Notes under the pieces: model-generated
Told to the model about the DNA's origin: nothing
The model's database searches: none
The model's input: only the letters and a program-made list of their open reading frames with translations
Position numbers and translations under genes: made by a program
From: a virus
Lineage: Duplodnaviria; Caudoviricetes
IMG/VR virus record: IMGVR_UViG_3300037295_000333
Span: 13,537-77,536 of that record
Direction: 5' to 3' (one strand)
DNA length: 64,000 bases
In this document: piece by piece, positions 9,909-42,997 of the stretch
Layout of the letters: every line of letters begins with the position of its first letter
Numbering within the stretch: position 1 is the first letter of the stretch

Positions 9909-12900
9909 TTATTTTAATACTTTTAGAATACTTTTATTTGTAAGGGTTAATTGATTTCCCTTTGTCCACTTATCTTCATACTTTAAGTTTGCCGAAAAGA
10001 TGATTATAGACTTCTCACAGCCCGTTAATTCTTTTTCGTACAACATATACTCATCAGACCAAACTATCAGTTTAAATAGCTTATAATTGTGTTCTATGGT
10101 TAACCTTGCAAACTTTCCTTTCTTGCTTTTTGATACCTTACACTCTACAATGTAACCTCCAAATAATCTAAATATACCAAAACCTTGTTTTGTGTTTAGT
10201 TCAATTTGAGTAAAAAATTTAGTATCAATTCCCATTGTACTGGCTATTTCACTATAATTTACATCAGCTAATCCAGTTAACTCTTTTTGCTTTAACAGCC
10301 ACCACCACTTTTGTGTAATTGCACCAACGGTATAGCAATCCTTTTCTTTGTTTGCAATTTTTACTCCATACCTTTCTCTAAAGTCTTTGATTAAATTACC
10401 TCTTTCTGACTCATTTTTAATATGATATAAGCGGTCAAATGCTCCAGAAGATATAAGTGCTTCATAAGTTTGTTTTTTTACCTTAGAGCCTGTAAAACTA
10501 TGTCTGTCATGAAAGTCATCAAAATCTGTGTAGTCTCCATTCTTATCCCTTTCAGCAATTACCTGTAAAGCGGTATCTTCACCAATTCCTTTTATAGAAC
10601 CAATTCCCCAAAAGATATTTTGACTCTTCATATCTGAAATCATTTCTATTCCTGAGCCATTTATGTCAGATGGAAGTATCTTTACTTTTTTTGCAGAAAA
10701 TATTTCAGCTAAATATTTTAAAGTATCTTTTTCATTCGCATAGTCCAATGCAACTGTCCAATACTCTAATGGAAAATTAACCTTTAAATACATTCCCACA
10801 TAAGCCGTGAGGGCATAAGCTGCAGAATGCGATAAATTAAAAGAATATTTGGCAAACTCGAGCATAACAGACCAAATTGTGTTAAATTCTTGAGAAGAAC
10901 ACCCTTTTTTAACAAAGCCCTCTTTTACTATATCTTTCCATCCCTCTAAAACAGATGCCTTTTTTTTACCCATTGCACGTCTAACGTCATCAGCTTCTCT
11001 CATACTTAGTCCTCCAACTTGTTGGCAAACTTGCATGATCTGTTCTTGATAGCAATTGTGGACAATTAAACCTCCAGAATGAAAACTATGTTCGTCTTTA
11101 ACTGTAATGTCATACGTATCAATAATTTCATTTTCTGTTATTCTAAGTATTCTTCCCCAAACCTTATGGTTAACATCTTCAAATTCAGTAAACTTTGATA
11201 TGGTGTCTCTTGAAACATAAGATGCATTACAATTTTTATTATAATATCTTGCCCTCATAGATTTCCATTTAGGTTTTGAACTCCAAATTAATCCATTAGT
11301 AGGGTAGTATATTTTAGCACCTTTAAAGTCTTCTTTGATTATTCTAAACTTTAACTTATCGTTTTTTCCAATTGATACTGTAAAAACATTTCCTTCTTCT
11401 TTGTAGGTACAAGGTATCCTGTAAGACTGTAACGCTAAAAATAAATCATAAGAAAGTTCTTTGTTTGCAAGTCTTATTATTCCATTTTGAAAACATCCAT
11501 CACCTTCAAATAACCCAGAAAGCATATGTATTGAATAATTTTTTGGAAGTCTTTTTGTGTATACATTTTGCTTGTTAGTTATTCCATATTCCAATAACTT
11601 TTTTTTCATTAGATTAACTTTAAAATCTTTAGAAAAATAAGCATTTTTGTTTTCTGCAAATGAAACTTGAATTCTATGACAACCTCCAAGCCTTTCTTTG
11701 TTTTTACGAAAAGTTACCTTTGGAACTGAAGTTGGAAATACTTTTTTAACTACTTTTAAAACTTCATTGGTTCTATCTTCGCTGCCTACGTATATTGTAG
11801 GCGTACACTTTCCGCCTCCCTCAGCTAAATAGTAACCTATTAGCCAATGTTCTAAAGCAGTATCTTTATCAATATCATCAAATTTTTCCTCACCTATCCA
11901 GTTCCCCTTTATTAAGTCTGATGAAGTGTTTAAATCTTTTGCCTCTTTCCATCCAAACTGAGTCATAACTTTATGATCTGGGGTCAATATTAATTCTTCC
12001 CCAAAAGTAGTTCTTATTCTTATGGTTTCTTTTTTTCCAGAATAAAAACTATCAGTTACTGTATCCCAATTATTTGACTTATTTCTTACTTTATCATTTA
12101 TTTTTACATCTTTTAATTTAACTATACCTCTTTTTGTAATTATATTTGATTCTCCAGAAAGACACAGAAGTCCATAGGTATTTTTTGTTATTTCCTCAGT
12201 CCCCCAAAGATATTCCACTTTTCTCCCCTCATTTTTACATTTTACGTAAATTTCATGATAGTGGTTCTCCATTGGTCCAGGTCTGTAAAGTGCATTGGCT
12301 GCAGTTAAATCATTAATATTTTTTGGCTTTAATGCTTTTGAATATTCAGTTAATCCTTCTGACCCCATTTGAAAAATATCACCGTTCCAACCATTTCCAA
12401 AATACCTGTAGACTTCAGGGTCATCAGGTAAATTATATATATCTGGCACTTCTTTGCCATTATTTTTTATGATTTCTAATATGTCGCCAAACTTGTCTAA
12501 TTGCTTAATTCCTAAAATATCTTCTTTTAAAAAACCAGCATCTTCCATTTGTCCACCATCCCACTCTGAAACAATTAATCCGTTTTGACTTCTCATTGGA
12601 GACCATTGTGAAGCTGTCATAACTTCAGGGAAAATAATCATTGCACACGGGTGAATTGATTTGGTTTTTGGCTGATTTAGTATTGTAGGCAATAATTTAA
12701 AGATGTCAGACTGTTGTTTTATGTATTGCTTTAGTCTAGGCTCTGTAGTTGAACGCTTGAATAAATCTAACATTGTAGAATCTTTTTCGTCTATAATGGC
12801 AGTCATTAAGTTTGCATTTGAAAAGTCATTCTCAAATTGCCTGTCCAAATCCTTTATTGCTCCTTTCAATTTTAAAGTTACCGTTGAGCCTACTGAGCAT

Positions 12901-12977
12901 ATCTGATTTTCTCCAAATCTTTTTTCCATATATGACTTTATATAAGCCCTATCTTTCCCTGCAAAATCGGAGTCAAT
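9909..12977 (-). CDS. dnaE: DNA polymerase III alpha, C-terminal piece (palm to OB fold) with cis intein; open frame begins upstream of the annotated ATG 12929 at ATT-GAC-TCC-GAT-TTT (IDSDF)
   Basis: IDSDFAGKDRAYIKSYMEKRFG, SIHPCA, KEDILGI, GDIFQM, LYRPGP, YQEQIM, RRAMGKK, AKYSFNLSHS, GIGSIKGIG. Confidence 0.9.
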   Translation of the reverse strand: MDSDFAGKDRAYIKSYMEKRFGENQICSVGSTVTLKLKGAIKDLDRQFENDFSNANLMTAIIDEKDSTMLDLFKRSTTEPRLKQYIKQQSDIFKLLPTILNQPKTKSIHPCAMIIFPEVMTASQWSPMRSQNGLIVSEWDGGQMEDAGFLKEDILGIKQLDKFGDILEIIKNNGKEVPDIYNLPDDPEVYRYFGNGWNGDIFQMGSEGLTEYSKALKPKNINDLTAANALYRPGPMENHYHEIYVKCKNEGRKVEYLWGTEEITKNTYGLLCLSGESNIITKRGIVKLKDVKINDKVRNKSNNWDTVTDSFYSGKKETIRIRTTFGEELILTPDHKVMTQFGWKEAKDLNTSSDLIKGNWIGEEKFDDIDKDTALEHWLIGYYLAEGGGKCTPTIYVGSEDRTNEVLKVVKKVFPTSVPKVTFRKNKERLGGCHRIQVSFAENKNAYFSKDFKVNLMKKKLLEYGITNKQNVYTKRLPKNYSIHMLSGLFEGDGCFQNGIIRLANKELSYDLFLALQSYRIPCTYKEEGNVFTVSIGKNDKLKFRIIKEDFKGAKIYYPTNGLIWSSKPKWKSMRARYYNKNCNASYVSRDTISKFTEFEDVNHKVWGRILRITENEIIDTYDITVKDEHSFHSGGLIVHNCYQEQIMQVCQQVGGLSMREADDVRRAMGKKKASVLEGWKDIVKEGFVKKGCSSQEFNTIWSVMLEFAKYSFNLSHSAAYALTAYVGMYLKVNFPLEYWTVALDYANEKDTLKYLAEIFSAKKVKILPSDINGSGIEMISDMKSQNIFWGIGSIKGIGEDTALQVIAERDKNGDYTDFDDFHDRHSFTGSKVKKQTYEALISSGAFDRLYHIKNESERGNLIKDFRERYGVKIANKEKDCYTVGAITQKWWWLLKQKELTGLADVNYSEIASTMGIDTKFFTQIELNTKQGFGIFRLFGGYIVECKVSKSKKGKFARLTIEHNYKLFKLIVWSDEYMLYEKELTGCEKSIIIFSANLKYEDKWTKGNQLTLTNKSILKVLK
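11055..12164 (-). mobile_element. cis-splicing intein with LAGLIDADG homing endonuclease in DnaE (370 aa)
   Basis: TYGLL|CLSGESNIIT...LTPDHKV...WLIGYYLAEG...LSGLFEGDG...GGLIVHN|CYQEQIM. Confidence 0.93.
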
Positions 12978-13045
12978 TAAATGTCGGGAAGAGTGCCTTC
13001 ATAAAGCTTCTTCCCGACTACTTGTTTTATAGTTTTTACAATCAT
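12977..13045 (-). CDS. dnaE: 22-codon DnaE mini-ORF MIVKTIKQVVGKKLYEGTLPDI* (probable N-terminus of the last DnaE chain)
   Basis: ATG at 13045 in an A-rich context 7 nt after the previous stop; ends in LPDI, the first half of the DnaE catalytic PDIDxDF motif. Confidence 0.8.
   Translation of the reverse strand: MIVKTIKQVVGKKLYEGTLPDI
12983..13018 (-). promoter_or_regulatory. GC-rich hairpin immediately 5' of the candidate take-off codon
   Basis: GTCGGGAAGA (13018-13009) is the perfect reverse complement of TCTTCCCGAC (12992-12983); 16-nt loop with an inner GCTTT/AAGGC helix. Confidence 0.75.
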
Positions 13046-13052
13046 TTTATTT

Positions 13053-13421
13053 TTAATTATAGTTTATAATTTTGTCGCCCTCAAGCAAGTCTTCGACAAA
13101 TATAATACTTTCTTTTTGATTTCTAACTATTTTTATTAAACTTCCTTCTGTTAAAATTATATTTTCTAAATCTGTTTTTATTTCAAATGCAGGACAATCT
13201 CTCAGTTCCCCCATTCTTCCTACATTTAGGAATCTTTCAAAGAGTAGGTCAAATTCAATGGGATCAATTTGTATTATTCCAAGTAAGTAGGAAACAAGGC
13301 TTCCTCCAGCTGAGTTGTGAACTATTGCACCATTTACACTATAGCTATGATCTTGTGTTTGTACACCAATGTCATAAACTTTTCCTGTATGTTGTAAGTA
13401 TTTTTTAGACTTTAGTTTCAT
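13053..13421 (-). CDS. dnaE: DnaE middle piece: 36-aa split intein C-part, extein, degenerate Hint-like tail
   Basis: [20 protein letters not shown]...GAIVHN|[33 protein letters not shown] followed by 53 aa not expected in DnaE. Confidence 0.9.
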
Positions 13422-15840
13422 TGTAAAATTTTATTTTATAGTTATAGTTATGTACATATCTTCTTTTTGAAATATATTTGCAAGTTAAGTCTTTTTCCTG
13501 AATTATATTATAATTTTCTTCACATAATTCAATTTTAGCATAATGTGACTTTTTATTTACTTGAATTAATCTTTCACTTAATAAGTTATCCATATTCCTC
13601 TTTACTTCTATAACCTTGCCGTTAACAATAAAGTCTGGAAAATAACTTCTATATTCTTCATTGTCTTTAATTTTGTATTTTATTGGAAGTCTATCATAAT
13701 TTTTAAAATTAATTATATTTAAATTTTTATCACAGTCTATTATGTAAGCCAATTCTAATAATCCATTAAATATAATTTTTCCAAATCTAACAGTATGAAC
13801 TTCTCCGCTATTTTTAAGTGCATTTGTAACATTTTTTATATATTTTGGATTACTTATATAAAGGTTTCTCATTATAGCTGAAGCTTTATCTTTATTTTCT
13901 TTTACATTCCAATATTTTTGCGCATTTATTTTATTATTTAATTTTTGATTTGGCTTGTTTTGTGCTATTATCTGAGCCTTAGAGTTATTACTTTTTGCTA
14001 ATTTAGAATTTAAAGCCTCACTTAATGCACATTTACTGCAATTGTTTAATTTGTGAACATTTATTTTTAATCCTGATATAGATTTGCTATATTTTTTTTC
14101 ACATTTTAAACAAAAATCAGTAAAACTTCTTTTACTTGAAAAACCATTTTTTAAAAATAATAAAGCATCATTAAAGTTCATTTTACCTTCATAAACTTTT
14201 AGTAAAACAGATACACTACATCCTATTTTTTTAACTGCATCTAAAAATTTACCTTGCCTTTTATTTTCTTGTACTTCATCAAGTTCAGTAAGTTTATCGG
14301 CTTCCACCCAGCCCCTATTTTTTGTAAAAAACTTGTGATCTTTTGTGCATCTTATTACATTTTCTCCAAAATTAAGTTCCACTATTTCTTCATTTATATC
14401 GTAAATAAAAGTATTTATTACTTCTGACTTTCCAAAAAAGTGATTAAAGGTATTGTCTCCAACTTTAACATCTTCAATACTTTTAAATGTTCCGTTTGAC
14501 ATTTTTACCTTACTGCCTGCAACAAAACAACCTCTGCCTATTCCAGTCAACATTCCCTTTTCTTTTGCCTCAGCTATAATATCTCTTTGTACTAAAAAGT
14601 AGTCTATTACGTCACCTTTTTTCAAAACTGATATTTCTTCTTTTAGTCTTTCTACATATTTATTTTTATCTACTATTTTTTTTTGTGCAAATCCTAACTT
14701 TATGTAATGCATAAACAAATCTTCATTTGCCTTAAAGTTGTCTTTTTCCCACTCATTCATCTTATATTTTGGAAGCCTTCTGTTAACCGTATCATACATA
14801 AAATTACATTGTGATACTAATTCATCTAAATTTTTATTTGATTCCTTATACAGCCTAATCCAGCTTGTATTGCCTTGTTCAAACAATCCTATTAATTCAG
14901 ATGCATATATATCATTGTTCTTAAAATATTGATTTTTTGTTTTGTCGCTAAACTTTTTTCCAATTCCCCAAAGAATTTCTCTTGCTTCCCAATCAGATTT
15001 TTCCAAACAATAAGCGTCAAAAATTGCTATTGGCTTTAAATCAGATTTTAAATACAATTCTAAATTATCTATATATTTTTTATCTGTTTCTGCAATATCG
15101 AATTCTACCGTATCTACCATATAAAAATCAGCTTGTTTAAACCTGCTTTCAAACGATGTGGTTTTGGGATCTGTAATTACAAAAATTCCTTCTAAATTAT
15201 CTTTTAGAAAATCTTCTTTTACTGCAGTGTCTCCATTCACGTTTATTATCTCACTAAATTTTAATAAATTAAGCCAACCTTGAAAGTTTTTTGTATATAG
15301 TTTTACTTCATAACTTTCTTTTTCATTCACCACACTCAAGGTCATTCCAATTATTGACTTAATGTTAGAATCTTTACAATCATTTTGAAACCCCATTACA
15401 CCTGACAAAGAGTTTTTTTCACAAATTCCCAGTGTGTTTACGCCTAAAAATTTAGCTTTTTTTATCCAATCCTTATATGAGCCAATTCCATTTAACAATT
15501 CATTTCCTGAGTGAATTCCTAAAAATGATTTTGTAGGTAATTTTTGTTTTGCTTTACCTGTATTTTTTAATTCTGTCATTGATACATCTTCACCTACTTT
15601 TTGTATATACCAAATTCCTCCAAACTCATATACAATTCCATTTGCGTATTGGTCTACTTTAGAATAAATATCTTTGTGTATTTGAAATTTCTCATCAAAT
15701 ATAGTTATATTTTTATCTACAATCATAAACACTTCATCTTTTAGTATTAGATGACCCTCTTCTATTGTGTAGTCTAATAGGTGTCTATCACAATGTTTTT
15801 TTATACTTTTTAATTGATCCATAATGTTAATTTTTATCAA
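13405..15840 (-). CDS. dnaE: DnaE N-terminal piece (PHP domain) fused to split intein N-part carrying a PD-(D/E)xK-like endonuclease
   Basis: [25 protein letters not shown]|CFVAGSKV (Cys at 14529), CTKDHKF, then [15 protein letters not shown]; ends without HN, overlapping the next ATG by 17 nt. Confidence 0.92.
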
Positions 15841-42919: not shown

Positions 42920-42997
42920 TGATAAAGAGTCAGGATTCGAACCTGAAAGAATTGGGGTTTTTGTCCACTCGTTTTGCCTACTTAAACTATCTCTCTA
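42920..42997 (-). tRNA. degenerate tRNA-like element (anticodon arm mispaired)
   Basis: TAGAGAG/CTCTTTA acceptor, GTTT-AAGTAGGCA-AAAC D arm, TCAGG-TTCGAAT-CCTGA T arm; anticodon loop ACAAAAA lacks U33. Confidence 0.6.

Follow-up and report, generated by a model that had tools for sequence, protein, structure and literature searches.

Programmed translational bypassing in phages has so far rested on a single system: T4 gene 60 with its homologues, which are without exception topoisomerase genes (10.1101/2022.08.31.505936). The bypass in T4 gene 60 spans 50 nucleotides (nt) and lies within a MobA homing-endonuclease element (Huang 1988 and Bonocora 2011, cited by Manning & Atkins, 10.1101/2022.08.31.505936). 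In this element, the gap protects its carrier from the element's own endonuclease (10.1101/2022.08.31.505936), and pairing of the exiting mRNA has been proposed as the driver of forward movement (10.1101/2024.12.09.627546; 10.1101/2022.08.31.505936). Hops of +5 and +6 at a stop codon (stop-hops) were obtained with synthetic constructs in Escherichia coli (Weiss 1987 and O'Connor 1989, as cited in PMC5009743 and in 10.1101/2022.08.31.505936), and no natural in-frame stop-hop was known as of a 2016 review (PMC5009743). Furthermore, an upstream hairpin that refolds beside the shift site stimulates a forward (+1) shift of 70S ribosomes at CUU-UGA (PMC6321510, PMC3639245). Here we analyze a 64,000-nt stretch of the IMG/VR virus record IMGVR_UViG_3300037295_000333 (positions 13,537 to 77,536; below, the window), in which the phage replicase gene dnaE-C is broken by a stop codon within the motif that encodes the catalytic aspartates. 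We consider it probable that this break is a programmed translational hop, that is, a short bypass, which would give the sequence LPDIDSDF. The locus is best read as a small-scale equivalent, of independent origin, of the T4 gene 60/MobA cassette. Literature searches found no description of a bypass in dnaE.

The window comprises most of a 77.5-kb record, rated 96% complete, of an uncultured marine phage. The closest cultured relatives of the phage are the Cellulophaga phages phi13:1 and phiST and Tenacibaculum phage Larrie (genus Cbastvirus). All features of the window described below lie on its minus strand. The 5' segment of dnaE-C (12977..13045) starts with ATG 13045-13043 and encodes a 22-codon N-terminal extension, which ends with LPDI and is followed by TAA. 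This segment is homologous to the in-frame dnaE-C start of uninterrupted relatives. It is therefore not the stand-alone mini-open reading frame (ORF) of the original prediction, but the 5' end (N-terminal extension) of dnaE-C in a naturally split DnaE. The codon layout proposed there was recovered in every element. The take-off codon ATT (Ile; 12980..12982) is directly followed by the stop codon TAA (12977..12979), which would occupy the A site at take-off, and the matching landing codon ATT (12975..12977) lies 5 nt further 3' and is in frame with the main dnaE-C ORF. Between the two remains a coding gap of 2 nt (TA, 12979-12978), which lies within the TAA. The main frame (9909..12974) extends from GAC 12974-12972, the codon for the second catalytic Asp, to its stop and encodes the palm, fingers and HhH domains. 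It is open for 1,022 codons, though stop triplets make up 7.8% of positions. A +1 shift at the site meets TGA immediately; +5 is needed.

Alignment to the E. coli DNA polymerase III alpha subunit placed the first Asp after the gap at residue 403, so that the aspartate of the PD pair corresponds to residue 401. We take D401 and D403 to be the catalytic residues of the E. coli enzyme. If this is correct, the break lies between the two catalytic aspartates, as originally proposed. The extra TAATT bases are present in a second, independent assembly: the Logan assembly of run SRR12693780 was 100% identical to the window over 6,369 nt, extra bases included.

Comparison with related, diverged phages revealed 27 distinct interrupted alleles, broken at the same dnaE-C codons, on about 38 marine and human-gut contigs. 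Among the 120 best dnaE-C proteins, 107 had the full leader start, and the remainder started at an internal Met or had odd N-termini. LPDIDxDF was likewise unbroken in 107 of the 120 close dnaE-C proteins, and also in Cellulophaga phage phi13:1 and Tenacibaculum phage Larrie. Ten of the proteins with odd or truncated starts were located on their contigs, and nine of the ten genes were interrupted at the same three codons (L009, L010, L012, L036, L037, L044, L045, L046 and L047; here and below, our handles are given in brackets where needed). Since these proteins were picked by their truncated or odd called start, the selection was without bias towards a stem. The tenth gene (P0051, L038) was truncated by a stretch of Ns, had no gap and serves as a control. 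Pattern scans added further interrupted marine and human-gut contigs. An unbiased IMG/VR sample of 76 loci, corresponding to 50 distinct contexts, contained 12 interrupted, 11 split uninterrupted and 27 unsplit contexts, and one further interrupted allele was found on a GenBank faecal phage scaffold. An IMG/VR scan with the exact context as pattern gave a single match (L007). As this match fell on the other strand, within an unrelated gene, it was discarded as chance.

The gaps between take-off and landing codons were 1, 2, 3, 4, 6, 8, 19-21 or 34-38 nt long and fell into all three frames, and one 21-nt gap held two in-frame stops. Therefore, readthrough or a single type of frameshift is excluded as the common mechanism. 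In every interrupted allele, a hop restores LPD(I/V)DxD(F/V/Y). One allele (L012; ATT-TG-ATT) has the same geometry as the window, and its contig was seen in 15 samples. Another (L046, positions 1512-1520) reads CCC-TGA-C, the classical +1 frameshift motif with a 1-nt gap, and is located behind a hairpin of -21 kcal/mol. This allele links the hops to prfB-type shifting. Long-gap relatives have a GC hairpin just after the stop, in some of them with a UUCG loop. The called downstream genes of the interrupted relatives encode 636-1,072 amino acids (aa) with the frame intact, and L-P-D is conserved in the leader frame while the nucleotides vary. The downstream frame is under purifying selection.

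The take-off codon is always that for Pro, Asp or Ile of LPDI. A stop codon (TAA, TAG or TGA) directly follows it in 21 of the 27 alleles, the window included, and comes one codon later in two. Across the alleles, the landing codon varies with the take-off codon and is in nearly all cases able to pair with the take-off tRNA. After an Ile take-off it is ATT, ATC, GTC or GTT (AGC in one allele), and after a Pro take-off it is CCG, CCA, CCT or TCA (GCG in one allele). After an Asp take-off, GAT or GAC is found in four alleles and a codon matching at two of three positions in eight (GAA in four, TAC in four). Variants at the first position of the landing codon in the Ile and Pro alleles mostly keep a wobble pair with the tRNA. 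Furthermore, two near-identical gut phages differ solely at the landing codon, GTC versus ATC. As for single variants after the take-off codon, three gut alleles (L098, L111 and L129) have, some 40 nt ahead of the match start at 2501/1001, a take-off GAT followed by CAA in place of TAA, with the rest of the 37-nt gap and the hairpin kept, and AGG (L076) and GTT (L116) were seen at the same position.

The second signal at the break is a hairpin (12983..13018) located directly upstream of the take-off codon. Its stem is a perfect, GC-rich helix of 10 base pairs (bp) formed by the 5' arm GTCGGGAAGA (13018-13009) and the 3' arm TCTTCCCGAC (12992-12983), and its 16-nt loop contains a 5-bp inner helix. 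The 3' arm ends at the base just before the take-off codon. The window stem reached -19.7 kcal/mol, compared to a mean of -4.0 (standard deviation, 1.9) for synonymous recodings that encode the same peptide with codons drawn from the window's own usage, and none of 20,000 recodings was as stable. The codons of the stem arms are rare in this genome (GTC, 3%; GGG, 9%; CCC, 4%). The stem and its atypical codons, both pointed out in the original prediction, were thus confirmed.

Over the 45 nt preceding the take-off codon, all interrupted alleles had hairpin energies of -15.6 to -23.9 kcal/mol, while 46 uninterrupted contexts ranged from -3.2 to -13.9 kcal/mol, without overlap (Mann-Whitney p about 1e-7 for interrupted versus uninterrupted in the unbiased IMG/VR sample). 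The stem of the interrupted alleles always ended within about three bases of the take-off codon. The uninterrupted relative closest to the window, with an 80% identical protein, has no stem. Across the alleles, the 3' arm keeps coding for (S/T)-L-P, its wobble positions vary, and the 5' arm varies in step. Three to five pair types were detected at these wobble positions, among them A-U (11 cases), C-G (7) and G-C (4) at the Leu codon and G-C (11), A-U (4) and G-U (6) at the Pro codon. The stem covariation for which the original prediction had proposed to look in orthologous loci is therefore present. In gut alleles, the 5' arm sits in a different reading frame, and therefore it is the RNA pairing that is conserved, not the peptide. 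The compensatory changes and the rare codons imply selection on the RNA. With its 10-bp stem and 5-bp inner helix, the hairpin has the form of a 5' stem-loop that could re-form behind the ribosome. Some matches of the stem pattern were unrelated hairpins of other phages and were set aside.

We infer the hop itself, its efficiency and a pulling role of the hairpin from these sequence comparisons, and propose the following course of events. Ribosomes would start dnaE-C at ATG 13045, translate 22 codons and then pause, with AUU 12982-12980 bound by peptidyl-tRNA-Ile and the A site filled by UAA. At this point, the ten bases of the 3' arm would be held in the E site and the exit channel, with the 5-bp inner helix and the 5' arm already outside. 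The hairpin, which was opened for the passage of the ribosome, would already be nucleated and could close only by drawing mRNA out of the ribosome. Slow termination would give time for the tRNA-Ile to unpair and for the mRNA to slide by five bases. The tRNA would then re-pair with the identical AUU five bases on, and decoding would resume at GAC 12974. The predicted product ...LPDIDSDF... would contain both catalytic aspartates at their normal spacing, and the junction peptide of a clean hop would be ...GTLPDIDSDFAGK.

On a broader scale, we lean towards the view that the window is the shortest member of a large, undescribed family of natural hops (1 to 38 nt) at the dnaE catalytic motif of Bacteroidota phages. 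In such a family, a hairpin that refolds immediately behind the ribosome would be the main driver, rather than the nascent peptide or a Shine-Dalgarno (SD) contact. The gaps would have been spread by homing-endonuclease cassettes as marks of self-immunity, and the family would represent an independent second invention of the gene 60/MobA solution. Bacteroidota hosts make little use of SD pairing. Dependence on a hairpin instead of an SD contact would suit such hosts.

The resemblance to T4 gene 60 extends to the organization of the locus. In both cases, the split affects an essential gene connected with replication; its upstream product is extended at the C terminus and its downstream product at the N terminus, and the noncoding gap follows a few dozen codons after the start of the downstream gene. 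Both have matched take-off and landing codons, a stop directly after take-off and a 5' stem-loop. Both also have an endonuclease gene between the halves in some members that is lost in others (the window being one of the latter), and some relatives keep the split and the tails without the gap. However, gene 60 encodes a topoisomerase, whereas here dnaE is affected, the endonucleases are of the GIY-YIG and NUMOD3/phrog_314 types and the phages infect Bacteroidota. Take-off occurs at Gly in gene 60 but at Ile, Pro or Asp in the dnaE alleles, and the gap is 50 nt in gene 60 and 2 nt in the window, where a take-off stem-loop is lacking. Moreover, the 5' hairpin is a universally conserved signal in the dnaE alleles and is not conserved among gene 60 homologues, and no specific nascent-peptide signal was detected in the dnaE leader, in contrast to gene 60. 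No homology to MobA or to the topoisomerase insertion site was found. Thus, the dnaE system is an analogue of MobA/gene 60 and not a member of it, since it differs in the gene affected, in its endonucleases and take-off codons and in the signal that dominates.

The synthetic E. coli stop-hops resemble the predicted event in that peptidyl-tRNA leaves the codon before a stop and re-pairs 5 or 6 nt on, the window corresponding to +5. They are, however, artificial and of low efficiency, whereas the window site is natural, is located in an essential gene and has a dedicated hairpin. With prfB-type +1 shifting (CUU-UGA-C) and the +1 shifts that an upstream hairpin promotes (PMC6321510, PMC3639245), the window shares the stop in the A site and a duplex just behind the ribosome, either an SD duplex or a refolding hairpin, that pushes forward. 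The CCC-TGA-C allele (L046) is exactly of this type. The window differs from it in that overlapping +1 re-pairing does not suffice, a nonoverlapping +5 is needed and an SD-like element is not required. Finally, in the Byp elements of Magnusiomyces capitatus mitochondria, as cited in 10.1101/2022.08.31.505936, ribosomes also skip mobile inserts in essential genes and a slow codon follows take-off. According to the same source, these elements are mitochondrial, resemble GC clusters, are much longer (27-55 nt) and have no endonuclease cassette.

If the hop is true, it would found a second independent family of bypasses, with dozens of natural variants in gap length, take-off and landing codon that share a simple hairpin. 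This series of dnaE alleles would be a ready mutational series on the release and landing of ribosomes. The locus would also add a case to the idea that homing endonucleases, by supplying a decoding fix of their own, can colonize the best-conserved regions of essential genes. For annotation, it matters that such dnaE-C genes are called from an internal ATG, which removes the catalytic aspartates, or are left unannotated.

The proposal of a hop made in the original prediction is supported by the 27 alleles, by the rule that connects take-off and landing codons and by the covarying hairpin, which is exclusive to interrupted alleles. Several observations weigh against it. The 2-nt gap of the window contains no hairpin and hence no take-off stem-loop of the gene 60 type. 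A sense codon (CAA, AGG or GTT) follows the take-off codon in 4 of the 27 alleles, and in 10 of the 27, the landing codon (AGC, GCG, GAA in four and TAC in four) agrees with the take-off codon at only two of three positions. It is also conceivable that only the two gap bases are skipped, which would give LPDIIDSDF with one extra residue. The leader provides no visible feature that separates the window from its uninterrupted relatives. It is similar in alleles with and without the gap, including its richness in Lys, so that the basic nascent peptide, which had been listed as evidence for the hop, is not specific. Furthermore, no gap was found among the cultured phages Cellulophaga phi13:1, Tenacibaculum Larrie, Chryseobacterium MA9V-3, Bacteroides BS-TP1 and DAC23, and DNA searches of the phage collection with two cassettes returned uncultured records only. 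Since no cultured gap-bearing phage was found, viability rests on recurrence in metagenomes.

Other explanations of the break have to be weighed against the hop. In the window, a change of frame is all that is required, and a hairpin-driven slide that halts early is conceivable; a -1 (or +2) frameshift at the site could thus join the two segments. However, the products, LPDILIDSDF or LPDIIDSDF, would place extra residues between the catalytic aspartates, no slippery heptamer is present at the window site, and relatives with in-frame stops (3- and 6-nt gaps) or with the 21-nt gap containing two stops would not be rescued. We regard a frameshift as unlikely. Slightly less probable still is termination followed by re-initiation, in which the 22-aa leader would be released at the TAA and a separate dnaE-C protein would start at the overlapping ATT. 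In its favour, TAATT looks like a stop-start overlap, ATT serves in rare cases as a bacterial start codon, and DnaE is here already built from separate polypeptides. But the resulting C protein would be without the first catalytic Asp, the equivalent codons of the relatives (GTC, GTT, AGC, GCG, TAC, GAA and TCA) are no start codons and track the take-off codon, and L-P-D is maintained in the leader frame despite nucleotide change.

The gene is heavily colonized by selfish elements, with two inteins in the window and endonuclease genes in relatives, as could be expected of a dead or dying allele whose insert is a DNA-level scar or immunity mark in a phage that relies on another polymerase or on a helper. 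Such an allele is very unlikely, given the 1,022 intact codons after the gap, the likewise intact downstream frames of all interrupted relatives, the hairpin kept by compensatory changes and rare codons, and the recurrence of one allele (L012) in 15 samples. Removal of the gap at the RNA level, by a micro-intron or by editing, could use the hairpin beside the gap as a recognition element, together with the second hairpin inside the gap of long-gap relatives. Nevertheless, no known mechanism excises 1-4 nt in bacteria or phages, no structure spans both borders of the gap, and neither the stop after take-off nor the codon-matching rule plays a part in splicing, which leaves this explanation with even less probability than a dead allele. 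As the source is a metagenome assembly, an artefact of sequencing or assembly was also considered; with an identical sequence from a second assembler and homologous gaps in about 38 contigs of unrelated samples, it is next to negligible.

Two further candidates were rejected. An alternative genetic code was dismissed because TAA, TAG and TGA are all found at the site and the length of most gaps is not divisible by three. Rescue of the dnaE break by a suppressor or otherwise unusual tRNA was dismissed as well: the sole tRNA predicted in the window by ARAGORN is a 77-nt tRNA-Phe with the odd anticodon AAA (42921-42997), and this prediction may be spurious.

With respect to the origin of the putative hop, the interrupted alleles are scattered over the dnaE-C tree, and well-supported branches force at least seven changes. 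Genes for homing endonucleases lie between the dnaE halves in at least five interrupted lineages, of the GIY-YIG type in two (L027 and L037) and of the NUMOD3/phrog_314 type in three (L009, L030 and L020/L034). None of the eight uninterrupted split loci has an endonuclease gene between the halves. The idea that the insertion is a scar of a mobile element, already raised in the original prediction, thus gained support. The element appears to consist of the endonuclease, the split, the tails on both products and the gap shortly into the downstream gene. The endonuclease seems to have been lost in some lineages and the gap also in others. In the window, no endonuclease gene is located between the dnaE halves, as it would be in a complete MobA-type element; the halves are separated by a 7-nt spacer, consistent with endonuclease loss as described for MobA elements. 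Most likely, the gap is the footprint of a homing-endonuclease cassette that also split dnaE. By analogy to MobA, it may shield the conserved DNA of the catalytic motif from cleavage by the endonuclease.

The DnaE of the window is spread over four frames and shows the split pattern of Cbastvirus-like phages. Two adjacent dnaE genes are the arrangement in cultured Cbastviruses and in the majority of over 1,000 relatives from databases. In split relatives, RFLN of the N gene is followed by a tail of about 45 aa, and LPDID of the C gene is preceded by a leader of about 18 aa. Unsplit relatives without tails (P0084 and P0087) and re-fused relatives with tails (P0045 and P0079) also exist. In the window, the last piece of dnaE-N (13053..13421) encodes a C-intein half of 36 aa (13421-13314), followed by the extein SAGGSLV...RFLN and a C-terminal extension; its stop codon is 13055-13053, and the N genes of relatives end at the same point. 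The C-terminal tail of about 55 residues after RFLN is encoded at about 13223-13056. Relative to the split-gene relatives, the five extra bases are the only unusual feature of the window. In some phages, the dnaE halves are not adjacent and are separated by a PAPS-reductase-like gene (L004, of L004/L050) or a Dda-like helicase gene (Bacteroides phage BS-TP1, L042). The tail of dnaE-N (13056-13223) and the leader of dnaE-C (12983-13045) resemble remnants of a Hint/intein fold; this likeness is based on a junction Cys that is present in some relatives only and on the similarity of the leader to the start of an intein C-half.

The first piece of DnaE encodes the PHP/palm part and ends in the N-half of an intein, which starts at 14529, followed by about 285 further residues. 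This N-half and the 36-aa C-half of dnaE-N form a naturally split intein at GRG|SAGG of DnaE (13314-14529). The C-half has its own ATG (13421) in another frame, with a 17-nt overlap with the upstream stop. Within dnaE-C, a 370-aa intein with LAGLIDADG motifs (11055-12164) is inserted at YGLL|C...HN|CYQEQ; most relatives are without it (C gene of 673-674 aa). The approximately 285 residues fused to the N-half of the split intein contain a PD...EVK nuclease-like motif and gave no Pfam hit. A gut relative (L033) has the same split-intein arrangement with a separate 311-aa ORF that matches a TnsA-like endonuclease family (PF08722).

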